Shown here piece after piece: positions 7,641-26,127 of a stretch of DNA of 32,000 nt (position 1 is its first letter; every line of letters begins with the position of its first letter). The notes beneath the pieces were generated by a model, which searched no databases, was not told the origin of the DNA, and worked only from the letters and a program-made list of their open reading frames with translations. Source of the stretch: Limnohabitans radicicola. Lineage in GTDB: Bacteria; Pseudomonadota; Gammaproteobacteria; Burkholderiales; Burkholderiaceae_C. A program made the position numbers and the translations under genes. The stretch is taken from positions 477,688 through 509,687 of the forward strand of contig NZ_JACYFT010000001.1 of the NCBI RefSeq assembly GCF_014837235.1, read 5' to 3'.

Positions 7641-8276
7641 TCAATCGACCACCTGCCGCCAAGCGCGCTGCGCAGCCATGACCGCGTTGGGGTAAGCGGC
7701 CTGTCCGCGTGAGCCGTTATACCGGCCCAGGCCCATGAAAGCGTCACCCGCTTCGCGGTCGAGCAGGTAACGCAAGATCACGCAGCCAAACCGCAGGTTG
7801 GTCTGCATGTGAAAGAGCCGCCCTGCGTCGCCATCGCCGATCAGGCGGGCCCAGAAAGGCATGATTTGCATGTACCCCAGTGCCCCGGCGCTGGAGACAG
7901 CGTGTTTGCGAAACCCACTCTCGACTTGCACCAGCCCCAAGACCAGGGATAAGGAGAGACCCGCTCGACGCGTTTCGTACCAGAGGGTTTGCAAAAATTC
8001 CTGCCGCTCCACCGGGTGGGGCATGTAAGAGGTCAGGCGTGTGCTGCAGGCCAGCAGCCATCGGTCATGGGCCTGCCGCTCGTCGGCAGAGGTAAAGATC
8101 AACGCTGGCGGCGCACTGCCGGCCACAGCGGCGCTCAAGGCCGTGCGCACGGCGTGAGACAGTGGCTCCTCAATCTGCCGCCCGGCCATCGCGGGCGACA
8201 CGGGCCACAAGCCCGCCGCGCAAGTCGCCAAAACAAGGCGCCGGGTCAGTGCTTGCGGGCTGGGCTCAGCGGCCAT
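7641..8276 (-). CDS. lytic transglycosylase (SLT domain) with signal peptide
   Basis: LVLGLVQVESGFRKHAVSSAGALGYMQIMP carries the catalytic E-S and GLMQ-like motifs. Start set at MAAEPS (8276) because the longer ORF would overlap the proS 3' end. Confidence 0.75.
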   Translation of the reverse strand: MAAEPSPQALTRRLVLATCAAGLWPVSPAMAGRQIEEPLSHAVRTALSAAVAGSAPPALIFTSADERQAHDRWLLACSTRLTSYMPHPVERQEFLQTLWYETRRAGLSLSLVLGLVQVESGFRKHAVSSAGALGYMQIMPFWARLIGDGDAGRLFHMQTNLRFGCVILRYLLDREAGDAFMGLGRYNGSRGQAAYPNAVMAAQRAWRQVVD

Positions 8277-13863: not shown

Positions 13864-14056
13864 AAATGACCTCTTGAATGGAAGTTTCCCAGGGCTCATC
13901 CCAAGGAACCTGCGATTGTAGCACGGCATGACCTGAATGGCCAGCGAGGGAGCCACCAAGCTGCTGGGGGCCCTGGGCAGACCTATAATCCGAGCCAATT
14001 TAGAGGGTTTTCCCGCCCTCACCCGCACCACAAGTGCTTTCAGCAGGATTTTCAAG

Positions 14057-15040
14057 TTGTCTGCCCCCGAAAACAGTACCGCCACTGTCCTCGCCCTGGT
14101 CGCCCAGGACATGGGCGAAGTCGATCGCGTGATCGCCCAGCGCCTGGATTCGGGTGTGCCCCTCGTCGGCGAAGTGGCCCGCTACATCATCTCGGCAGGA
14201 GGCAAACGCCTACGCCCCGTCTTGCTCTTGCTGACCTGCGGCGCCCTGAGCTACACCGGATCGCAGCGTCACAACCTGGCTGCGGTGGTGGAATTCATCC
14301 ACACCGCCACCTTGCTGCACGACGATGTGGTTGACGAGTCCACCCTGCGCCGTGGCCGCCCGACGGCCAATGAGAGTTTCGGCAACCCTGCCAGCGTGCT
14401 GGTGGGCGATTTTTTGTACTCCCGAGCCTTCCAGATGATGGTCGACGCCGACAGCATGCGGGTGATGCAGGTGCTGTCCGACGCCACCAACGTGATCGCC
14501 GAAGGCGAAGTGTTGCAGTTGATGAACATGCACGACGCTTCGCTCGACGAAGAAGGCTACCTGCGCGTCATCCGCTCCAAAACCGCCAAACTGTTTGAGG
14601 CCAGCGCCCGACTGGGGGCCATTCTGGCTGGCAGCGACGCCGCTGTTGAAGCCGCCTGCGCCGATTACGGGCAGGCATTGGGCACGGCGTTCCAGGTCAT
14701 CGACGATGTGCTGGACTACGACGGCAACGCGGCCGAAATGGGCAAAAACCTGGGCGACGACCTGCGTGAGGGCAAAGCCACCTTGCCTTTGATTTTGGCC
14801 ATGCAACGCGGTAACTCGACCCAGAGCCAGACCGTGCGCGAAGCCATTGAAAGCGGCAGCGTGGACAAACTGAGCGAAATCGTGGCGATTGTTCGCGAGA
14901 CAGGCGCCTTGGACGGCACACGACAAGCCGCCGCCGCAGAAGCCCAGCGCGCCATTGACGCGGCCATGCAATTGCCCGACAACCGGTACCGCACAGCCAT
15001 GGTGACGCTGGCGTCACAGTTGCTGGAGCGTCGGACTTGA
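14057..15040 (+). CDS. ispB: octaprenyl-diphosphate synthase (trans-polyprenyl diphosphate synthase)
   Basis: Two DDxxD motifs ([19 protein letters not shown]). Divergent from rplU as in many proteobacteria. Start uncertain: TTG 14057 gives about 327 aa, matching IspB length; ATG 13937 would consume the rplU promoter region. Confidence 0.85.
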
Positions 15041-15056
15041 GAACCCCAGCGCCGTT

Positions 15057-15374
15057 TCATTCAACCACGACTTTGCAGGCATCCCGAATCTTGAGTTCGG
15101 CCCGTTTTTCCTCGCAATAACGCATCGCTCGGCGCGCACCCTCTGCGGCCATGCGGATGTGCACCGAGCATTGGAGCGTGGCTTTGTCCGACTCGCCATC
15201 ACCGTCAAATGCTGCAGCGCAACGGCTCTGATCGCTCATGTCTGGTTTATTGAGGAGCCAGACCCGCTTGAGAAAATCAGGCAACGCTCTCATGTGCACC
15301 GTGGGGTAAGGTTCAGTGGCACCTGCGCCCAAGGCCAGCAAACACAAGCTCAAAAGGCAGATTTTCTTGATCAT
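15057..15374 (-). CDS. hypothetical secreted protein (signal peptide, 4 Cys)
   Basis: MIKKICLLSLCLLALGAGA signal peptide. Host-like GC. No family recognised. Confidence 0.5.
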   Translation of the reverse strand: MIKKICLLSLCLLALGAGATEPYPTVHMRALPDFLKRVWLLNKPDMSDQSRCAAAFDGDGESDKATLQCSVHIRMAAEGARRAMRYCEEKRAELKIRDACKVVVE

Positions 15375-15490
15375 GGGATGACTTTAGAACAATCCCGTTG
15401 ACAGCAAAAGGCCATCCGGTAGCCAACACCCGAAAACCCTGAGCCAGATCAAAGGATGAGCCGAAACCGAGCATCCTGCCTTGAGAAAAA

Positions 15491-15538
15491 TGGTCGGGGT
15501 GAGAGGATTCGAACCTCCGGCCTCTACGTCCCGAACGT
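15491..15538. repeat. distal att repeat (displaced copy of the tRNA-Pro 3' end)
   Basis: tggtcggggtgagaggattcgaacctccggcctctacgtcccgaacgt matches 26051-26098 exactly; identity ends at 15539/26099. Confidence 0.95.
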
Positions 15539-15551
15539 GCCTGACTATGGT

Positions 15552-15574
15552 CTAAGCTGTTGATTTTATTGAAG
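15552..15574 (+). repeat. 23-bp island-end motif CTAAG(C/T)TGTTGATTT(T/C)ATTGAAG, left copy
   Basis: 21/23 identity with 26024-26046 in direct orientation. A partial third copy (AAGTTGTTG..ATTGAA) lies at 17844-17861. Confidence 0.85.
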
Positions 15575-15584
15575 TTTTACGTTA

Positions 15585-15606
15585 TGTAGTTTAGTTTGTA
15601 GTTTAT
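15585..15606 (+). repeat. two tandem TGTAGTTTA(G/T) motifs (candidate arm-type integrase/RDF sites)
   Basis: TGTAGTTTAG at 15585-15594 and TGTAGTTTAT at 15597-15606, period 12 bp. Confidence 0.85.
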
Positions 15607-15691
15607 TAAAGGCTGAATGCAAACCAAAGAAAAGACGCTGTCTAAGCTGCAAAAACGTGTCTGTCAGTGTGCCATAAAAGCCTCTACGTTC

Positions 15692-15712
15692 AGCGTCGAT
15701 TTTTAGGACGCT
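15692..15712 (+). repeat. 21-bp palindromic element, copy a: AGCGTC GATTTTTAG GACGCT
   Basis: Perfect 6-bp arms (7 bp with the flanking C/G). One mismatch to copies at 20614-20634 and 20141-20161 (reverse). Intergenic. Confidence 0.9.
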
Positions 15713-15840
15713 GCTACGTCATTGAAGCACAGCAGATGGGCTCTGCTGCCCCCACACAAGCCCTACAGCACGTCGATTGCCGACGCTGTGCTCGCCTCGT
15801 TAAAGGGCTCTGCCATCGACAGCTTGTAGGGTGGTTAGAT

Positions 15841-15872
15841 TAAAAGTGGTGGGGGTTAGGTTCTCCACCACC
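15841..15872 (-). terminator. rho-independent terminator downstream of the 161-aa minus-strand gene
   Basis: On the minus strand: GGTGGTGG-agaacctaac-CCCCACCAC followed by TTTTAAT. Confidence 0.6.
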
Positions 15873-15876
15873 TTCG

Positions 15877-15914
15877 AAAACTGCAGCAGAAATTTTTTGA
15901 GTGCTGCAACCATT
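15877..15914. repeat. about 38-bp CTGCAGCA hairpin repeat, copy A
   Basis: aaaacTGCAGCAgaaattttttgagTGCTGCAaccatt has a 7-bp stem. It aligns in blocks with 19244-19283 (aaaactgcagca / gaaattt / gag / ctgcaa). Confidence 0.7.
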
Positions 15915-15937
15915 TTCACTATGCCTCTCATCCCCAC

Positions 15938-16423
15938 TCACCACTTTTTTGCAGTAGCTATGTTTCTCGCCGAAAAACCCACTTTTTTGGGTGGTTTGAG
16001 CGGATTTGATGGCAACGCTTGGGGCTGTGCCGATGCTGTGGGCGCTGTGGGCGCTGTGGGTTGGGCTGAGGGTAAGGGCTGCTGATGTGCTGTGGGTTGG
16101 GTAGTCTTTGCCGAAAGCTGTTGAGGGGTGGCTGCACGTGGGGGCTGCTGCTGAACACCCACAGCTGATTTCTGTTGCTGCTGTTGTGGGGGTGCTGCTT
16201 TCTTCGGTGGGGGTGGTGGGGGTAAGCGAAGCGAGGGCGCTGCACCCTTAGTCTTTCGTTTGCCACCCTTCAATTTTGCTGCACGTTGCGCCGCTGCTTT
16301 GCGTTCTGCTTCATCGCGTGCTTGCTGATTGATAGCAGCCCACACGTTGTCATTGATGAGCTTCCATAGTGCCATCTGCTCTTCTGCACTTGCAATTTCC
16401 ATCATTCTCATCGCCATCTCCAT
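15938..16423 (-). CDS. hypothetical protein: helical N-terminus, Lys-rich linker, Pro/Gln-rich low-complexity tail
   Basis: 161-aa ORF followed by terminator-like hairpins. The tail contains PPPPPPKKAAPPQQQQQ and PTAPTAPTA. No family recognised. Confidence 0.5.
   Translation of the reverse strand: MEMAMRMMEIASAEEQMALWKLINDNVWAAINQQARDEAERKAAAQRAAKLKGGKRKTKGAAPSLRLPPPPPPKKAAPPQQQQQKSAVGVQQQPPRAATPQQLSAKTTQPTAHQQPLPSAQPTAPTAPTASAQPQALPSNPLKPPKKVGFSARNIATAKKW
16035..16061. repeat. three tandem copies of a 9-bp unit (GCTGTGGGC) inside the P/Q-rich CDS
   Basis: gctgtgggc gctgtgggc gctgtgggt encodes PTAPTAPTA on the minus strand. Unit length is in frame. Confidence 0.85.
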
Positions 16424-16476
16424 TTCTTATATTTATCGTCAAAGCCTTTGGGTGGTGATGCATTAACTGACTTTGG

Positions 16477-16485
16477 TGCTATAGT
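16477..16485 (+). promoter_or_regulatory. candidate extended -10 (TGCTATAGT) for the 2TM/HEPN-like operon
   Basis: TGn-TATAGT lies 65 nt upstream of ATG 16550. No good -35. Motif-level call only. Confidence 0.3.
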
Positions 16486-16549
16486 TGTTGGGGCATTGAG
16501 CTGTCTTTAGCCTCTTGTTAATGTCTTCGAAAGAATGAGGAGTTTGATT

Positions 16550-16759
16550 ATGTCTAAGATTTTTCCAAAATGGATTAGTCCTCGCGCATTTTTTCTTGCT
16601 GCTTTGATTTCTGTTCTTCCTTCTTTTGGAGCTATAAATTTCAGCGGCTTTTCTGCAGAAGTAATTGTTCAGCTATTGCTGCAAGCATTCTTCGGCGGGT
16701 TGTTTTGGGGCTGGATTTTTACGAAATTTCTACCCAAATATTTCGGTAAAAAAGATTGA
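16550..16759 (+). CDS. small 2-TM membrane protein, hypothetical
   Basis: ATG 16550 preceded by GAGGAG at 7-nt spacing. 69 aa with two hydrophobic helices (FFLAALISVLPSFGAI; LLLQAFFGGLFWGWIF). Its stop abuts the next gene. Confidence 0.55.
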   Translation: MSKIFPKWISPRAFFLAALISVLPSFGAINFSGFSAEVIVQLLLQAFFGGLFWGWIFTKFLPKYFGKKD

Positions 16760-16764
16760 ATTGT

Positions 16765-17238
16765 ATGGAGTTAATGCCTGCCGAACTTAGGGCTGAATGG
16801 GCTCCTATTGTTGGTAATTTTATTATCGAGTTTGGAGAATTGGAGTCTGCAATTAGTGAGGTTGTTAGACTGAGTTCAACCCCCAGCCAATTTGAAATTT
16901 TATATACTCTTAACTTTGTTAAGAGGTTGGATTTGGCGGAGGCTGCTCTTGTTGAATGGAATAATCATTCCAAAGAGTTAATAAAAGAAGCTTTTAAGAA
17001 AATAAGAGATGTAGTGGCGAAAAGAAATATTATTGCTCACAATGGTTTTTCCATTAATATTTATGAGTTAGAGGGAGGTGAGACTCGGTATGAGTTTGGA
17101 ATGACGCCTTCGTATAAGCAAAGTAGTATTTGGCTTACTAAAGAGCATTTAGAGCGAGATACGGCATTGCTTGTAGAGTTTATTAAATCAATTATTGAGT
17201 GGATTCCCAAAGACTGCGTTGCAAATAAGGTTAGGTAG
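16765..17238 (+). CDS. hypothetical protein with HEPN-like R-x4-H motif (candidate RNase/toxin)
   Basis: About 157 aa, predicted helical. KRNIIAHNG (R 17023-17025 to H 17038-17040) fits the HEPN RNxxxH signature. Start ambiguous (TTG 16756, ATG 16765 or 16774). Lies in a very AT-rich block. Confidence 0.5.
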   Translation: MELMPAELRAEWAPIVGNFIIEFGELESAISEVVRLSSTPSQFEILYTLNFVKRLDLAEAALVEWNNHSKELIKEAFKKIRDVVAKRNIIAHNGFSINIYELEGGETRYEFGMTPSYKQSSIWLTKEHLERDTALLVEFIKSIIEWIPKDCVANKVR

Positions 17239-17322
17239 GTTTCAGATTTACGACACTCCTTAAACCATACTGAGCTTCCAACAGCCACTTTGCGCGGTTG
17301 ATGTCCTCTGCTTGCACTTGTG

Positions 17323-17388: not shown

Positions 17389-17829
17389 TCATTTCTTAAA
17401 GCCACTACGCAGCTTGTTGCTGACAGCGTCAATCTGTGCATCTAAGCTGCCCTCTTCGACAGCTTGCTTGACGATTTCCAACGTGGGCAGCAGCTCATCG
17501 ACGGACGACAGCTCAATGGCATTTTTCCCTTTGCTGATTTCGATGACTTTGGCACCGTAGCGGATTGACAGATTGAGCTTGCCGTCCGCTGTTTTCCACC
17601 ACCACTGTTTCACCTTCTTTGCCGTTTCGATGCTGCGGCGTTCGCCAGTCTCTGCATCTTTTACAGATTTGAATTTGGTAGGTGCATACACACGCCCTTC
17701 GGCTTGTGCTCGTGCCAACTGCATCTGCTCGAACAGCTTTGTGCTCAGCTTGTTGCGACGCTGCTGCGTAGGGGTTTGAGCTGTAGCACGCTTAGCTACG
17801 ACGAATTTGAGGTTTGCGAGTGCAGTCAT
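17389..17829 (-). CDS. hypothetical protein (146 aa, basic, WWW motif)
   Basis: GGAG lies 6 nt upstream of the ATG. RRNKLSTKLFEQMQLA...KVKQWWWKTADGKLNLSIRYGAK...AVEEGSLD resembles uncharacterised proteins I recall from proteobacterial integrative elements; no family name asserted. Confidence 0.6.
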   Translation of the reverse strand: MTALANLKFVVAKRATAQTPTQQRRNKLSTKLFEQMQLARAQAEGRVYAPTKFKSVKDAETGERRSIETAKKVKQWWWKTADGKLNLSIRYGAKVIEISKGKNAIELSSVDELLPTLEIVKQAVEEGSLDAQIDAVSNKLRSGFKK

Positions 17830-17968: not shown

Positions 17969-18496
17969 ATGAAGCCAACAGCAGAACACGTCCGAAATTT
18001 CCTCAACGAGCACAGCCAACACATCACGCATTGGGCAGTGGCACACACGCCGTTCCACACCTACAAAGCAACACCGCAGCAGCTCGAAAGGATGAAGCAC
18101 GAGGCACAGAATCAGTGTCGATTTTTTCGACGCTCGTTCAGCCAATTTCTCTATCAAGCAAAGGCACTCCGCAAACCCGAAATCTACAGCCCACTACTCA
18201 TCACAACCATCGAAGGCGTAAAAGCATCTCCATTCACACAAGACACCATCCACTTCAATTTCGCAATAGGCAACGTCCCACGCTGCATCAGCACTGACGA
18301 GCTACGGCAAGTGTTCGAGCATTGTTGGGTTGATAAGGCAAAGCTCAGCGGCAAGAACTTATGGCTGCAAGCTGCAGACTGCAGCCGCAACACGCATTGG
18401 CTCAACTACATCACCAAAGAAGCAGAGATAGGCAACATAGACACGTGGGATTTCCAAAACACGCAAATCCCACACGTCGCACTCGCAGCAGACTGA
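17969..18496 (+). CDS. hypothetical protein, possibly HUH/Rep-like (YagK/YfjJ / inovirus Gp2-like layout) with a degenerate HUH
   Basis: 175 aa from ATG 17969; alternative starts are TTG 17876 and ATG 17882. The order PLLITTIEG ... IHFNFAIGN ... WLNYITKE resembles Rep motifs I / II (H-U-H, here H-F-N) / III (YxxK). Weak, motif-level only. Confidence 0.4.
   Translation: MKPTAEHVRNFLNEHSQHITHWAVAHTPFHTYKATPQQLERMKHEAQNQCRFFRRSFSQFLYQAKALRKPEIYSPLLITTIEGVKASPFTQDTIHFNFAIGNVPRCISTDELRQVFEHCWVDKAKLSGKNLWLQAADCSRNTHWLNYITKEAEIGNIDTWDFQNTQIPHVALAAD
18114..18134 (+). repeat. 21-bp palindromic element, copy c: AGTGTC GATTTTTTC GACGCT (inside the Rep-like CDS)
   Basis: Two mismatches to the copy at 20614-20634. 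Encodes QCRFFRR in the plus-strand gene. Confidence 0.8.
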
Positions 18497-20161: not shown

Positions 20162-20907
20162 CACAACTCACTGTTGGGGAACTGCCCTTTCGCTGTATTG
20201 GCAATGATGGCACGTGCTTGCTTGACGTATCGACTCACAGTCATTGTCATAGTGGCGTGCTTTTTACGAGTGTCATAGGCGTTGTCCCACTTGTGCGGCA
20301 TTGCATTGGGCACGAGTTTGAGACTTTCGCCGATTGCCCATAAAGGCTTGCGCTGCTCTTTGGGTTGGGCATCGTTGGCAGCAACAGCGTCATAGACATC
20401 GAGCATCACCTTTAGGCTGTGCTGCGTGAAGTTGCGATGCAGAGGGTAGCGTGCTGTGCTTGAAGCTGTCTGCAGCGACTTTCGCCCACGTTTGCCCTTG
20501 TGCTCCGTCTGCAACAAGTCAGCGAACTTCTTCTGCAGATGCCGACGCCCCAAATCCATATTGACAGCGACGAACAAGACGTTGCAGCCCCAACGCTTGT
20601 TCATCTCCGCTGCAGCGTCGATTTTTTGGACGCTTAGCTCCAATGGCTCTTCGGCGAACAAATAGTCGCCCTTGTTGTTAGGTGCTCCCCACCAGCTGCG
20701 GAAGTCATCACTACGCACGTCGCCGAAGTCCGCATACAGCTCAGCAAGCTCGCCAACACCCCCACGCTCACAGCAAGCAAGGTAGTCAGCGTTCCTTCGC
20801 AGATATGCCCACCACCAATAGTAGGGGCTGCGCTGCTGCAGATGTATGGGCGATGGCTTGTGCTTCGTCCCAATCAGCGGATGGATGGCTAAGAACTTTT
20901 TGCGCAT
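20161..20907 (-). CDS. putative transcriptional regulator-domain protein (N-terminal SPYYWWWAYLRRNADY motif)
   Basis: 248 aa. The N-terminal aromatic-rich xYLRRNxxY motif resembles the WEFLRRN-type motif of uncharacterised regulator-domain proteins from mobile elements (recalled, not searched). The C-terminal 150 aa is unassigned. Confidence 0.55.
   Translation of the reverse strand: MRKKFLAIHPLIGTKHKPSPIHLQQRSPYYWWWAYLRRNADYLACCERGGVGELAELYADFGDVRSDDFRSWWGAPNNKGDYLFAEEPLELSVQKIDAAAEMNKRWGCNVLFVAVNMDLGRRHLQKKFADLLQTEHKGKRGRKSLQTASSTARYPLHRNFTQHSLKVMLDVYDAVAANDAQPKEQRKPLWAIGESLKLVPNAMPHKWDNAYDTRKKHATMTMTVSRYVKQARAIIANTAKGQFPNSEL
20614..20634 (+). repeat. 21-bp palindromic element, copy e: AGCGTC GATTTTTTG GACGCT (inside the 248-aa CDS)
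   Basis: Exactly 7 in-frame codons (SVQKIDA on the minus strand), placed right after the N-terminal domain. Inverted relative to copy d, which lies 452 bp away. Confidence 0.9.
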
Positions 20908-21057: not shown

Positions 21058-21885
21058 ATGGCTAAATTTTCTAAAGCTCAGTCTGCTGCAATGGCAATCG
21101 CAACCAACGCAAATGTCAAAGCAGTAATCGAAGAGGCAAACAAGCTGTCAGTGCAGCGTGAAAAGTTCGAAAACGAAGAACTCGCACGCAGCAATAAGGC
21201 TCTGTATGCAATTCTCGAAAAGGTATATGGGTTGTTTAATAAAGCAGTCAAAGATGGCTGTATTAAAGAAACGGCGAAGGAAATGCGTTCGATGCTGAAA
21301 GAGCGTGGCGTTAAAGTGCAGAGCAATACGCCAGCCCTTACTTGTTTCGTTCGCTTTGTTTTTAACAGCGACAGAAAGCGTGCATACAACTACGCAAGCA
21401 CGCTGATGGCAGCAGTAGATGCAGACATCAAGCCCGAAAACCTTGCTGCTTTTATTGAAGGCAGCAATGGAGTGGAGGAGTGCAAAAAGGCATACAAGAT
21501 GAAAGACGAGACAAAGCAGCGAGTTGAGGCTGTAGCTGCAGCAAGCGTCGATGTAATGGACATTCTTAAAACGATGCCCTCTGCAGCCAACATCACTCTG
21601 CCAAATGCAAGCGTCGATTTGAGCGACGGTGTGGATTTCGCATTCATCGTTGCTCGTAGTGTCGGCAACGGCAAATTCGAACTTCTGCGTGCTGTGCCTA
21701 AATCGACGAAGGCTATGCAAACTGCTGCTGTTAAAGAGCTTGCTAAAAACCTAATCGAAGTCGCAGCCAAAGCACAGACTGAAACTAAGGAGCAGAAAGT
21801 AAAAGCGACTACTGAAAAGGCAGTCAAGTCAATTTCTGCTAAGTCTGCTGCAAAGATGACACTGAAAGAGTTGGAAGCAGCGTGA
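21058..21885 (+). CDS. hypothetical protein (275 aa, helical, Ala/Lys-rich C-terminus)
   Basis: AGGA lies 8 nt upstream of the ATG. Co-oriented with the downstream AAA+ gene. No family recognised. Confidence 0.6.
   Translation: MAKFSKAQSAAMAIATNANVKAVIEEANKLSVQREKFENEELARSNKALYAILEKVYGLFNKAVKDGCIKETAKEMRSMLKERGVKVQSNTPALTCFVRFVFNSDRKRAYNYASTLMAAVDADIKPENLAAFIEGSNGVEECKKAYKMKDETKQRVEAVAAASVDVMDILKTMPSAANITLPNASVDLSDGVDFAFIVARSVGNGKFELLRAVPKSTKAMQTAAVKELAKNLIEVAAKAQTETKEQKVKATTEKAVKSISAKSAAKMTLKELEAA
21610..21630 (+). repeat. diverged copy of the palindromic element: AGCGTC GATTTGAGC GACGGT (inside the 275-aa CDS)
   Basis: Shares the exact 11-mer AGCGTCGATTT with copies a, d and e. The right arm has one mismatch. 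Confidence 0.6.
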
Positions 21886-21943
21886 GCAATATGTGGGGTG
21901 CTGCAATGCACTCCACCTTTAATTAAATTATTTGGAGGTTATT

Positions 21944-22591
21944 ATGGGCAAGATTGTTGATACTGAAAGCAAATATCGTCCTCGTTCGCTTGACGAGTTT
22001 GTTTTCCCTAACAAGCACGTTGAGGAAGTTGCAAAGGCGTATGGTAGTGGTGAAATAACTCGTCCGCTGATTTTGAGTGGAACGAATGGCACTGGTAAAA
22101 GTCTCTTGTCAGAGCTAATACCGCAGCAGATTGAGGGATTTGAACCGCAAATCAATCGAGTGCGTTCGTGTGATTTGAATAGCAGCAAAGAAATCTACAG
22201 TCAATTTACACGCAACAAGCAATTCGACAAGCTATTCACTCCCTACAACCAACGCTTTAGCTACAACATCATTGAAGAAGTGAATTTCGATACCAAAGCA
22301 AGGGACGCTTTTCGAGTAGTGCTCGATGAGTATAGGGGGGTAGATATGACGATTATGACTACGAACGAGATAGGGAAAATTGACATTGGTGTTCGTAGTC
22401 GATGTGAGACGCTGCATGTGCCACCGTGCGAACCACAAGTGTTTTTCCCTCGTGCCAAAGCCATTATCGAAGCTGAGGGCTACAGCATAGACGACGACGC
22501 CCTAATAGCTGCGTTGGATGCTGTATATGACGCCAAGCCAGATAATCGGCGCTACTATCAGACAATCGACGAGATACTGCGTAAAGCGTAG
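21944..22591 (+). CDS. AAA+ ATPase, RFC/clamp-loader-like, truncated (no collar domain)
   Basis: GGAGG lies 5 nt upstream of ATG 21944. KYRPRSLDEFV (clamp-loader N-terminus), Walker A GTNGTGKS, Walker B-like IIEEVN, sensor-1 TTN and an SRC motif (VRSRCE). Only 215 aa. Confidence 0.75.
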   Translation: MGKIVDTESKYRPRSLDEFVFPNKHVEEVAKAYGSGEITRPLILSGTNGTGKSLLSELIPQQIEGFEPQINRVRSCDLNSSKEIYSQFTRNKQFDKLFTPYNQRFSYNIIEEVNFDTKARDAFRVVLDEYRGVDMTIMTTNEIGKIDIGVRSRCETLHVPPCEPQVFFPRAKAIIEAEGYSIDDDALIAALDAVYDAKPDNRRYYQTIDEILRKA

Positions 22592-22615: not shown

Positions 22616-23062
22616 CTAAAAGCCCGCCTTGTGCGGGTTTTTTACCATTATGTTGGTATTTCCTTGATTTACAAAAAGATGCTCCACCAATTCAGCAAAT
22701 TCCTCATCATTCAGATAAGACGGAAGAAATTTATACTCCTGCAAATCTTTATTCATAGGCGTTATGTCGATAAGTTCGCCGCTGACCATTCTAACTATAG
22801 AGTGTGATACAAATATTACGAAAGGGCTTGCTACGGCATCAACGCAAATCCATCCTCTTATCGGATTTGCATTTTTATTTATATTGCAATACTCATCTAC
22901 ATTGTCGTGACAGTGGTTTTTAGTAGCCGAAAAACTTTCATCATCAACGCACCGCTTAACTATCAATTGAGCCTCTGATATTTTTGATATCAAAAATTTC
23001 CCGTAATCCTCAATCTGTCTTTGCGTGCAGCAACCTTTTGCAAGCCCTTCATACCTCAGCAT
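22616..23062 (-). CDS. hypothetical small protein with an ordered Cys...His...Asp pattern (possible papain/transglutaminase-like thiol hydrolase)
   Basis: 148 aa from MLRYEG. Its ATG overlaps the upstream TGA by 1 nt (TGATG). NHCHDNVDEYC ... PIRGW ... VSHSIV ... GELIDITP has spacing reminiscent of a C-H-D triad. Speculative. Confidence 0.5.
   Translation of the reverse strand: MLRYEGLAKGCCTQRQIEDYGKFLISKISEAQLIVKRCVDDESFSATKNHCHDNVDEYCNINKNANPIRGWICVDAVASPFVIFVSHSIVRMVSGELIDITPMNKDLQEYKFLPSYLNDEEFAELVEHLFVNQGNTNIMVKNPHKAGF
22618..22643. terminator. rho-independent terminator for the AAA+ operon, overlapping the 3' end of the convergent CDS
   Basis: AAAGCCCGC-cttgt-GCGGGTTTTTT. The hairpin also encodes the last residues (NPHKAGF) of the minus-strand gene. 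Confidence 0.75.
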
Positions 23063-24447
23063 CACTGCCACTTTTGATAGCTATCCGTTATAGTTGGATG
23101 CTTTGAAGACAGACTCTTTTTTAACTCTGCAACAAGCTCGTCGCTTGCGTATATCTCATTCATATTCATCTGCTTTTGGAAAAAAGTGACATTATGTTTG
23201 GCGTCTGACACGTTTGTCGAGGCTATTACCGCCCAAGCATGCGCATATATTTTATTCGCGGCCACACCCTCTCCCTTCCAATACAGCGACGAGAGTGAGT
23301 GTTGAGCCTTTGCACTACCCAAATATGCAGCCTCTCGCATCAGCTTAAAGGCATCCTCCAGCTTTCGCTCTTTTCCGTATGTTCCGTTATAGCTAATATT
23401 CGCGAGTTCATAGATTGAATTGGCGTCGCCTTTGTTAGCCTTTGCCTCCAACTCCCTATACGCCAATGCATTATGTCCCAGCATTTTATCGTTTACCGCT
23501 TTGGACTTAAGCGCCGTAAATCTCTCTTCTATATATTTCGCCTCTGCTCGTTTGATATCACCCTCTGATTGAGCCAAAGATTTCGCCCAAACACCTTTAT
23601 CTTTTCTATTTGACTCGATTTCCTCTAATGCAGTAGCATAAAGCAAATTAATCTCTTCATTGGATAGATCATGTACTTTGACGTCGGGCTTACTCGAATC
23701 ATTTAATGCATCACCTACCTTCGATTCGAATTTGTCGCGCTCCTCGCCAGTAGAGATTGCCGAATACGCATCTTCCATAAGTGGGATTTTATTGGGCTGC
23801 AATTTATTAAAGCCAGCATTCCCGTTAGATAAATCCCTCAATCCCGCTTGACTTGACTCTTCAGTTTTTGCCTTACCGAGCATAACGATAATTCCCCATA
23901 GCACCGCTGGAAATACTATCAAATTTGCTATTATGAACTGCACTATTTTTTCATATCTTATTTTCAACCCAGCCAGCGGAAAACTAATCAATTCATTAAA
24001 AATTCCCGTCAAGCCAATGCCAATGGAAATCATTAAGATGAGGATAAGGGCAGATTGAACTTTTGATTTGTATTTCTGCCTCAACCTCTTCGCAAAATAA
24101 AAAGCCGCTCCGAAGCCCAATATGGAGGCTATTAATACGGGTATGAATGCACTCATCAAACTCACCTCCTCAATATTTTTGCCCACATGCGTAGAATCTT
24201 TTCCCACTACTGCAGATGCAGACATGCCCTTTGACATAGCTTCGTTATAGGCGACGAATCCGCAGGCATACCCCCCACTGGGAAGTGGTATCGGAGCGTA
24301 ATATGATTCCACTCCGCACTTCCATGAATCCTTGACAAAGAATATTTCTGGATATTTTTTAATTGCTTTATTCAAGGCTTCGGCTTCAGTTACATTGTCA
24401 TTAACTTTTGCCGAATCACCATTTGGTAGTGGTAAGTATTTCGCCAT
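23062..24447 (-). CDS. 3-TM membrane protein with C-terminal Sel1-like (SLR/TPR) repeats
   Basis: 461 aa. TM helices LMSAFIPVLIASILGFGAAFYFA, ALILILMISIGIGLTGIF and IVQFIIANLIVFPAVLWGIIVML. SLR consensus in GSAKAQHSLSSLYWKGEGVAANKIYAHAW. Lowest-GC part of the window. Confidence 0.7.
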   Translation of the reverse strand: MAKYLPLPNGDSAKVNDNVTEAEALNKAIKKYPEIFFVKDSWKCGVESYYAPIPLPSGGYACGFVAYNEAMSKGMSASAVVGKDSTHVGKNIEEVSLMSAFIPVLIASILGFGAAFYFAKRLRQKYKSKVQSALILILMISIGIGLTGIFNELISFPLAGLKIRYEKIVQFIIANLIVFPAVLWGIIVMLGKAKTEESSQAGLRDLSNGNAGFNKLQPNKIPLMEDAYSAISTGEERDKFESKVGDALNDSSKPDVKVHDLSNEEINLLYATALEEIESNRKDKGVWAKSLAQSEGDIKRAEAKYIEERFTALKSKAVNDKMLGHNALAYRELEAKANKGDANSIYELANISYNGTYGKERKLEDAFKLMREAAYLGSAKAQHSLSSLYWKGEGVAANKIYAHAWAVIASTNVSDAKHNVTFFQKQMNMNEIYASDELVAELKKSLSSKHPTITDSYQKWQ

Positions 24448-24456
24448 TTACAGCCT

Positions 24457-25884
24457 TTACTTTCTTTGTCTTTTGCTCTGCAACATCTCAATATTCATCT
24501 CACCTTCTAAGTGGGACGCATAGAAACGCTCAATCATTTCCGTTGATGTGCGTGCGTTGCGTGCGAGTGTGAGCAAGTCCAAACCCTCGCCATAAAGCAA
24601 ACGGTACATTATGCAAGTGTGTCGTAGGCTGTAAAGGCTGCGCTCTTCCCCACGTGCCCCTTCTGCAAGCCCACAGTGAGCAAGCAAGACGCTGAACTGA
24701 CGCTGTAGTTGTGTCAGTGCTGCACCCCTACGCTTTTCAATCTGTTCCTTTGTGTCCGCTGCAGACGTGCGCCCATACGAGGGCAGAAACACGTAGTCCT
24801 CTGCTGTCGCTCTATTCTTCCGCTTGTCGTCGCTCCAATGCAGCGCCTTCTGCCGACGGTAGTAATGCACAGCAGCAGCCATCGACACAATAGGCTTGTC
24901 GTGCTTCTTGCTTGTGGGCAGCGACATACGCAGATAGGTATGCACGCCCTCAATTACCTCAATGTGCTTGTGCTGCATCCACTTGATGTCCGTTGGGCGT
25001 ATGAAGCTGTTCGTCATAAAGACGATGAGGTTCCGCAAGTCCTCTGTCATCTCCACACGCCGCAGCAGTTGGCTCGCTGCAATCTTCTGCTGTAGTGCCT
25101 TCTGTGCCGCAGCACGTGGCTTGTAGGTGGAGGGCTGTCGTTGGGCTGTGAAGATTTCCTCTTTGCCGTTGGCATCGACGAACTTGCGTATCTCCCACGT
25201 TTGCCCACTGAGCTTGCGTGCTGCACTCCACAGCTTGCGGTATTCCTTTGTGTTGAACCAACCGCGCGGTGCATCCACCTTTTTGACTTTGGGGAACTGC
25301 GGCACAGCTTCGATGTAGCCCCTGCGCTGTGCATAGCCCAACGTCTTGCGGACAAGCCCCAAATAGTTGCTGATGGTGGGTGCTGTGAGCTTGTCGGCAC
25401 TGAGCTTGTTGATGAACTTCTCAATGACGAAGTAGTCGATGCTCTTCAAGTCGTAGCTGCGGAAGTAGGGCAGCACTTCCTTCTGCAGCCGATACCTATC
25501 GTTCTGCTGCATCATTGCCGACATCTCACCGCGCTGCACCTTTGCGTCTTGCTGTTCGAGCAAAGCCGCAGCGCACATCTCAAAGTCTGCACGACTGTTG
25601 AGCACCAGCCCTTGTCGCTGCTTGTAATTGACTTCGTCGTAGAAGTCTTTGGCGAACTCGATTGCACGCCGCTTGTCTGTTTCCTTTGTGCTGCGACGAA
25701 GGATTTTTCCGTCAGCGTAGTAGCGCACCCACCAAAAGGGCGACGCTGCAAGCTGATAGACAACGAGCTTCTTTGGATAGTTGGGAACGTGCGTGAGGTT
25801 GAGGGCAGAAGTGCGATGCTTCGTCGCACCACCGTCGATTTGCACGACGCTGAGAACTGCCTTCTTTGCTGCTGCACGTGCCAT
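24457..25884 (-). CDS. int: tyrosine-type site-specific integrase (island integrase)
   Basis: 475 aa. C-terminal catalytic region (FIRPTDI..., LYSLRHTCIMY, ...MIERFYASHL). N-terminal arm-binding-like WWVRYYADGKILRRSTK. Located next to the tRNA target. Confidence 0.9.
   Translation of the reverse strand: MARAAAKKAVLSVVQIDGGATKHRTSALNLTHVPNYPKKLVVYQLAASPFWWVRYYADGKILRRSTKETDKRRAIEFAKDFYDEVNYKQRQGLVLNSRADFEMCAAALLEQQDAKVQRGEMSAMMQQNDRYRLQKEVLPYFRSYDLKSIDYFVIEKFINKLSADKLTAPTISNYLGLVRKTLGYAQRRGYIEAVPQFPKVKKVDAPRGWFNTKEYRKLWSAARKLSGQTWEIRKFVDANGKEEIFTAQRQPSTYKPRAAAQKALQQKIAASQLLRRVEMTEDLRNLIVFMTNSFIRPTDIKWMQHKHIEVIEGVHTYLRMSLPTSKKHDKPIVSMAAAVHYYRRQKALHWSDDKRKNRATAEDYVFLPSYGRTSAADTKEQIEKRRGAALTQLQRQFSVLLAHCGLAEGARGEERSLYSLRHTCIMYRLLYGEGLDLLTLARNARTSTEMIERFYASHLEGEMNIEMLQSKRQRK
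25831..25851 (+). repeat. diverged copy of the palindromic element: ACCGTC GATTTGCAC GACGCT (inside the integrase CDS)
   Basis: Arms have one mismatch to the consensus. The spacer begins GATTT. Confidence 0.5.
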
Positions 25885-26050: not shown

Positions 26051-26127
26051 TGGTCGGGGTGAGAGGATTCGAACCTCCGGCCTCTACGTCCCGAACGTAG
26101 CGCTCTACCAGGCTAAGCTACACCCCG
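26051..26127 (-). tRNA. tRNA-Pro (anticodon CGG)
   Basis: Reverse complement CGGGGTGTAGCTTAGCCTGGTAGAGCGCTACGTTCGGGACGTAGAGGCCGGAGGTTCGAATCCTCTCACCCCGACCA folds as a cloverleaf. Anticodon loop TTCGGGA, T-loop GGTTCGAATCC, encoded CCA. Confidence 0.95.

Follow-up and report, generated by a model that had tools for sequence, protein, structure and literature searches.

An integrase-proximal gene pair in a tRNA-Pro island of Limnohabitans radicicola and an unnamed protein family with near-invariant cysteine, histidine and aspartate or glutamate residues

P2-like phages and P4-like satellites contain hotspots of variable anti-phage genes (Rousset et al. 2022, PMC9122126). A comparable arrangement was found in a 10.5-kb island of Limnohabitans radicicola, within a 32,000-nucleotide stretch of contig NZ_JACYFT010000001.1 (positions 477,688 to 509,687 of the forward strand; the whole stretch is called the window below, and its own numbering is used). 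There, a 1.84-kb gene pair (22616-24447) lies between an integrase gene and a clamp-loader-like AAA+ gene. It comprises a large gene (23062..24447, minus strand), which encodes a membrane protein of 461 amino acids (aa), and a small gene (22616..23062, minus strand), which encodes a 148-aa predicted cytoplasmic protein of an unnamed family. The island resembles the P2/P4 hotspots in that a fixed site of a small element holds varied, compositionally foreign genes while the elements are otherwise near-identical, and in that an MmeI-type restriction-modification gene is present in a relative of the island. It differs in its backbone (clamp-loader-like AAA+, p275, p248 and a short recombinase), which is not P4-like, and in that none of the slot genes matches a known defence model. 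The durable result of the analysis is the small family and its sequence signature, rather than a two-component system.

Described proteins offer three comparisons for the products of the pair. The small protein shares with transglutaminase/papain-like enzymes (PF01841; NLPC_P60, PF00877) the Cys-His-Asp order, with spacings of 36 and 12 residues; this order and spacing, together with the local motifs, resemble the transglutaminase core. The layout in its predicted model also appears the same, with the cysteine at the N-terminus of a helix and the histidine and aspartate on the next two long strands, but the protein has neither a match to the hidden Markov models of these families nor similarity to their solved structures. 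Its only structural or profile relatives are phrog_6596 and a set of phage proteins (Vibrio phage phi50-12 A0A5P8PRB8, Erwinia phage vB_EamP-S6 Gp040 and Pseudomonas phage PaBG; Foldseek against BFVD, E 9e-6 to 4e-3, template-modelling scores 0.4-0.5), all functionally uncharacterised; 13 of 65 family members match phrog_6596, and the window protein itself does not. For the large protein, residues 326-447 align weakly to the repeats of the Sel1 proteins AlgK, ExoR, MotX and MerG. Those proteins are periplasmic, whereas the window protein has about two repeats, predicted to be cytoplasmic and placed after three transmembrane (TM) helices, and its scores are far below the family cut-offs.

The small protein is a member of a real family that carries no name. 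A word-indexed protein search returned one distant relative only, and an exhaustive search of 1.84 billion cluster representatives returned 284 members at E ≤ 1e-3, of which 42 also pass E ≤ 1e-10. With few exceptions the members are stand-alone proteins of 125-160 aa. The fusions seen in longer members are uninformative apart from two: a C-terminal SEC-C metal-binding motif is fused to the domain at one locus (L016, 5000-5644), and in protein P0057 the domain occurs twice in tandem. The motifs NHCHDN, PIRGW, SHSIV and IDITP, singled out in the first-pass annotation, are all found in the window protein, and they supply the candidate active-site residues C51, H52, N54, G70-W71, H87-S88 and D99-I-T-P (codons of C51 at 22912-22910, of H87 at 22804-22802 and of D99 at 22768-22766). 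Conservation was counted over 169 aligned homologues: C51 is kept in 167 of 168, H52 in 163, N54 in 167, G70 in all 169, W71 in 164, H87 in 168 of 169, S88 in 164, T101 in 165, P102 in 156 and F112 in 167, while position 99 is aspartate in 158 and glutamate in 11. Cys51, His87 and Asp/Glu99 are thus near-invariant. Two alignments of the family (A1 and A2) proved too heterogeneous for pattern scanning. An AlphaFold model of the small protein, built with 65 sequences, reached a predicted local distance difference test (pLDDT) score of 94.7 and a predicted template-modelling score of 0.88; in it, C51 is the first residue of helix 51-61, strand 81-91 contains H87, and the next strand, 97-99, contains D99. 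A family of about 280 clusters can thereby be recognised by the signature C-H-x-N ... G-W ... H-S ... D-I-T-P, and it now has a model of high confidence.

The integrase-proximal slot of this island family shows at least four states of occupancy, and the pair is one of them. The closest sister island (L054, in the Comamonadaceae metagenome-assembled genome JAIXPL010000001.1) has an integrase 93% identical to that of the window, an AAA+ protein 89%, p275 86%, p248 91% and a short recombinase 92% identical, and three further genes in common, with the backbone overall 81-95% identical. Its slot contains a 130-aa multi-TM gene (7710-8102, minus strand) that is unrelated to the pair and overlaps the integrase stop, so slot cargo may generally be expressed as an extension of the integrase operon. 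In a second island (L002), in which p275 is 68% and p248 76% identical and the AAA+ gene 74% (giving a range of 74-89% for that gene over L002 and L054), the slot holds a 330-aa homologue of the large gene that ends before the Sel1 part and is followed by a hairpin, without the small gene. What survives in a decayed remnant (L013, Ga0209599_10012527, 1-2539) is the C-terminal 54 residues of the integrase (68% identical), homologues of the large gene (264 aa) and of the small gene, and the end of the AAA+ gene; the remnant adjoins a PemK/MazF-like toxin-antitoxin (TA) pair. The hairpins behind the slot genes of L002 and L013 are homologous to that of the window, and the junction GTGTCNATTAAATTGAC beside the AAA+ stop is common to all three. 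A search of 400 genomes of the order with the AAA+ gene found one distant island (in the 1.7-Mb genome G490; AAA+ 33% identical), with an unrelated 182-aa slot gene. The complete MmeI-type restriction-modification gene mentioned above is cargo of this distant island outside the slot (L057, G490:C1:391000-409000, 13916-16741, minus strand). The same backbone thus accompanies differing genes between integrase and AAA+ gene, and the slot is therefore a cargo position.

Within the window, the slot cargo continues the integrase transcription unit. The integrase ORF (open reading frame; 24457..25884, minus strand, 475 aa; phrog_1 integrase 3.8e-15, Phage_int_SAM_5) is the first gene, the large gene starts 9 nt past its stop on the same strand, and the large-gene stop (TGA) and the small-gene ATG overlap by a single base (TGATG), all as described in the first-pass annotation. 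A GTG three codons upstream of this ATG would give a product of 151 aa, which is the length of the protein-database entry. On direct reading of the sequence the small gene lacks a good Shine-Dalgarno sequence of its own, and its translation should therefore depend on termination of the large gene. The operon is closed by a G+C-rich, intrinsic-terminator-like hairpin (22623..22637, minus strand; CCCGCACAAGGCGGG followed by a T run), which overlaps the last codons of the small gene. Shuffled sequence contains promoter-like matches at least as often as the integrase/large/small block does, so the three genes look like one operon. These features agree with a single minus-strand operon in which the small gene is probably translated in coupling with the large one, and the earlier proposal of a coupled pair holds, with the TGATG overlap and the one shared terminator as its basis. 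The G+C content is 41.3% for the pair and 38.5% for the small gene, against 53.7% for the integrase, 47.2% for the whole island and 63% and 59% for the flanks. The description of the pair as the most AT-rich DNA of the window is correct at the scale of the pair, the lowest-GC 1832-bp segment of the 32 kb starting at 22641, but not at shorter scales, a block at 16430-17300 being even lower in G+C (38%).

Outside this island family, members of the small family are accessory and mobile, often the last gene of a short operon, with varied partners and repeatedly near defence or TA genes. A search of 400 other genomes of the class gave no member of the family, and 16 plasmids of Burkholderia, Paraburkholderia, Rhizobium and Ralstonia carry it, always annotated as hypothetical. 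A tblastn search of 50,697 phage records gave at most one marginal match, and a scan of IMG/VR gave none. One relative lies 14 bp downstream of a gene for a 452-aa DUF6602 protein (PADLOC PD_DExK 1.8e-22, NucC 1.4e-14), and genes for ThsA-Macro and ThsB-TIR adjoin this pair on the opposite strand; the 'Damona' defence gene is characterised by the DUF6602 domain (bioRxiv 10.1101/2024.07.02.601686). Another relative is found 23 bp behind a gene for a 289-aa protein, in an integrase/AlpA island with TIR and Upx genes. A cassette of a 190-aa gene and the small gene, separated by 6-8 bp, recurs in two unrelated neighbourhoods (L008, 4925-5931, and L011, 173-1193), where the 190-aa partners are 74% and the small proteins 47% identical. 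One of these loci contains a 1319-aa LmuA/DUF4297-STAND protein and a DEAD helicase, and the other HipA, a resolvase and a type IV secretion system coupling protein. The 190-aa protein bears an RNALEH motif and has no family match. Assignment of the 190-aa and 289-aa partners to the HEPN proteins was considered and set aside, as they have the R-x4-H motif and no family or PDB match. Further relatives are located behind genes for small secreted or proline-rich proteins, or stand alone beside insertion sequences, a resolvase, HepT/MNT or ParA.

We tentatively favour, with somewhat less than even confidence, the explanation that the pair is cargo of a mobile conflict cassette type, acting in defence, abortive infection or exclusion. 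The 1.84-kb pair itself is exchangeable cargo of the slot between integrase and AAA+ gene, where it probably prolongs the integrase operon at its 3' end, the small gene being translated in coupling with the large one. The small protein would be a thiol-dependent enzyme working with or on the product of the gene upstream, which here might be the cytoplasmic tail of the membrane protein, with the Sel1 repeats as a docking surface. Across its relatives, the small family would form the constant member of two-gene conflict cassettes, the upstream partner being exchangeable. The proposal of a defence or exclusion module made in the first-pass annotation is thus retained in part: relatives do occur in mobile elements and defence neighbourhoods, but PADLOC-DB 2.0 matches neither protein of the window nor any of the 65 family members.

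That negative search weighs against the conflict-cassette explanation, as do several other results. The small-protein model resembles no solved thiol-enzyme fold; the closest sister island, L054, is without both the large and the small gene; the small gene of L013 carries a frameshift and has Gly-Arg in place of the invariant Gly-Trp. At some loci (L001, L007, L048 and L058), family members are solitary or have surroundings that look ordinary. The docking role of the Sel1 repeats is pure conjecture, because the structure predicted for the large protein is of low quality (pLDDT 53).

The main rival treats the two genes as cargo with independent functions that happens to be placed in one operon: the large gene would be an island accessory, for example for surface functions or exclusion, and the small gene a self-sufficient mobile gene. 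We regard this as possible, if on balance doubtful. It agrees with two loci, L002 and L003, at which the large gene occurs but the small one does not. In L003 a large-gene homologue lies downstream of a gene for an Mrr-type nuclease, in place of an integrase; a 75-aa ORF separates the two, and a 16-codon ORF is all that follows. It also agrees with the range of the small family, which is found behind at least five unrelated upstream genes or alone, and with the conserved right edge of the slot at GTGTCNATTAAATTGAC, which implies that the small gene can be gained or lacking as a discrete block. The TGATG overlap and the lack of an own Shine-Dalgarno sequence, on the other hand, tie the small gene to the large one, the large-then-small order recurs in L013, and the cassette with the 190-aa gene has been kept together in two neighbourhoods. 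The earlier expectation that the two genes would be linked in other genomes was largely disappointed: the order recurs only in the L013 remnant, which is of the same island family, the pair is absent from two related islands, and small-family members elsewhere have other partners or none. The large and small genes as such are not a conserved system.

The most likely role of Cys51, His87 and Asp/Glu99 of the small protein, together with Asn54, Gly70-Trp71 and Ser88, is that of a catalytic centre based on a thiol. The likeness to thiol enzymes noticed in the first-pass annotation is thus borne out by the conservation of the three residues and their layout in the model, but not by family searches. 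None of the 65 family members matches Pfam or NCBIfam, and a family profile compared with PDB sequences gave chance hits only. With alignments built from same-class genomes, hhalign gave the family a probability of 4.5% against 30 Transglut_core domains, in the wrong register, and of 0.1% against 12 NLPC_P60 domains. This is read as excluding membership of the Transglut_core and NLPC_P60 families but not of the papain-like superfamily, because a control of two accepted papain-like families, Transglut_core against NLPC_P60, scored just 1.7%.

Alternatively, the small protein may be a non-enzymatic, metal-binding adaptor or regulator with Cys51, His52, His87 and Asp/Glu99 as ligands. Four conserved residues of ligand type, the interchange of aspartate and glutamate at position 99, the relative with a SEC-C metal-binding motif and the failure to detect a thiol-enzyme fold all agree with this. 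We nevertheless hold it to be unlikely, since a cysteine at a helix N-terminus with histidine and aspartate on successive strands is the classic layout of thiol enzymes, and the invariant Asn54, Ser88 and Gly-Trp resemble catalytic helpers rather than ligands. Adjacent Cys-His residues, moreover, are rarely both ligands of one metal. At the other extreme, the small protein might represent a new fold class of thiol enzyme that forms the constant part of modular two-gene conflict cassettes and turns its exchangeable partners (membrane protein, NucC-like nuclease and R-x4-H proteins) on or off, either modifying them covalently or cleaving them; this bolder version of the thiol-enzyme proposal we likewise consider improbable.

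The pair might also be an addiction module of the TA kind that stabilises the island, in which the membrane protein would be toxic and the small enzyme would neutralise it by modification or cleavage. Tight coupling of two genes on a mobile element is in keeping with such a role, and the partners of relatives include likely toxic effectors, namely the NucC-like nuclease and the R-x4-H proteins (the latter at motif level only). TA genes (BrnT/A, HigB, HipA and HepT/MNT) are frequent in the surroundings of relatives. The large gene, however, persists without the small gene in L002 and beside a broken one in L013, neither of which would be expected of a protein that is toxic unless neutralised. 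The pairing is kept in L013, with the defective small gene, and neither L002 nor L054 has it. A toxin of 461 aa that combines a periplasmic domain with Sel1 repeats would in addition be atypical, and we think this role quite unlikely.

The large protein consists of four parts. An N-terminal domain with two conserved cysteines (residues 1-95, 24163-24447) is followed by three TM helices (residues 97-191, 23875-24159), a disordered, charged linker with the conserved KDKGVWAK...AKYIEERF (residues 192-325, 23473-23874) and two Sel1-like repeats (residues 326-447, 23107-23472) that occur only in the window copy. The three helices that the first-pass annotation had predicted correspond to hydrophobic segments at about 97-119, 131-153 and 169-191. 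Positively charged loops of membrane proteins face the cytoplasm (the positive-inside rule), and the first loop, KRLRQKYKSK, with six positive and zero negative charges, should therefore be cytoplasmic, which would place the N-terminal domain outside and the C-terminal 270 residues inside. We thus infer an inner-membrane protein with an outward N-domain and a cytoplasmic linker and Sel1-like repeats. Three homologues were available for comparison (44%, 36% and 32% identical, covering residues 1-320 only). C44 and C62 of the N-terminal domain are invariant in these homologues, and KDKG[VL]WA...G......A.Y[IL]..R is invariant across all four large proteins (window 23500-23600, residues about 283-315); the KDKG[VL]WA motif is described in no library.

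The Sel1-like repeats that were attributed to the large protein can be recognised, but below the thresholds of the family models. The Pfam Sel1 model (PF08238) covers residues 344-378 in one copy, at 26.0 bits against a cut-off of 30.7, and the alignments across residues 326-447 to NCBIfam models of AlgK, MerG, ExoR and MotX are weak. This part also matches phrog_8741 (4e-7), distant homologues with PF08238 align across 18-24% of the large protein, and the model of the large protein, built from four sequences, is helical here at low confidence. A conserved two-component system of a membrane-anchored Sel1 sensor and a hydrolase of transglutaminase or papain fold, for which the Cys-His-Asp order and spacing of the small protein might speak, is very unlikely and largely refuted, because the Sel1 part is unique to the window copy and none of the three homologues has it, the two genes are not conserved as a pair, and the small protein has no Transglut_core or other Pfam match and aligns with a probability below 5%, in the wrong register.

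If a catalytic partner is indeed common to unrelated effectors, the family would represent a new enzyme fold and a new wiring principle for bacterial conflict systems, and the integrase-proximal slot of this little-known betaproteobacterial island family would be a place to seek more such cargo. Otherwise, the apparent system would resolve into two separable cargo genes.

The island that carries the pair has the features of a tRNA island: a direct repeat of a tRNA 3' end, a tyrosine integrase beside an intact tRNA gene and a foreign base composition. The tRNA-Pro(CGG) gene (26051..26127, minus strand) was identified by ARAGORN, and its 3' 48 nt (26051-26098) form the right attachment repeat, of which an exact copy at the far end of the island (15491..15538) is the left one; the repeat overall extends over 58 nt at 95% identity, the inner 48 nt being identical, and the two copies bound the 10.5-kb island. 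The clamp-loader-like AAA+ gene (21932..22591, plus strand), which forms the other edge of the variable slot, is part of the island backbone and convergent with the integrase operon. A palindromic motif of about 22 nt (AGCGTCGATTTTT.GGACGCT) is present in five copies in the island (15691-15712, 18113-18134, 20613-20634, 21609-21630 and 25830-25851), the last of which falls within the integrase gene. The other AT-rich cargo block of the island contains a gene for a 160-aa protein (16756-17238, plus strand) with a sub-threshold match to HEPN_RiboL-PSP (E 0.0012, 19 bits against a cut-off of 28). A 146-aa backbone protein (17389-17829, minus strand) is a member of DUF6641 (5e-17), and its counterparts are 93% identical in L054 and 44% identical in the distant island of G490.

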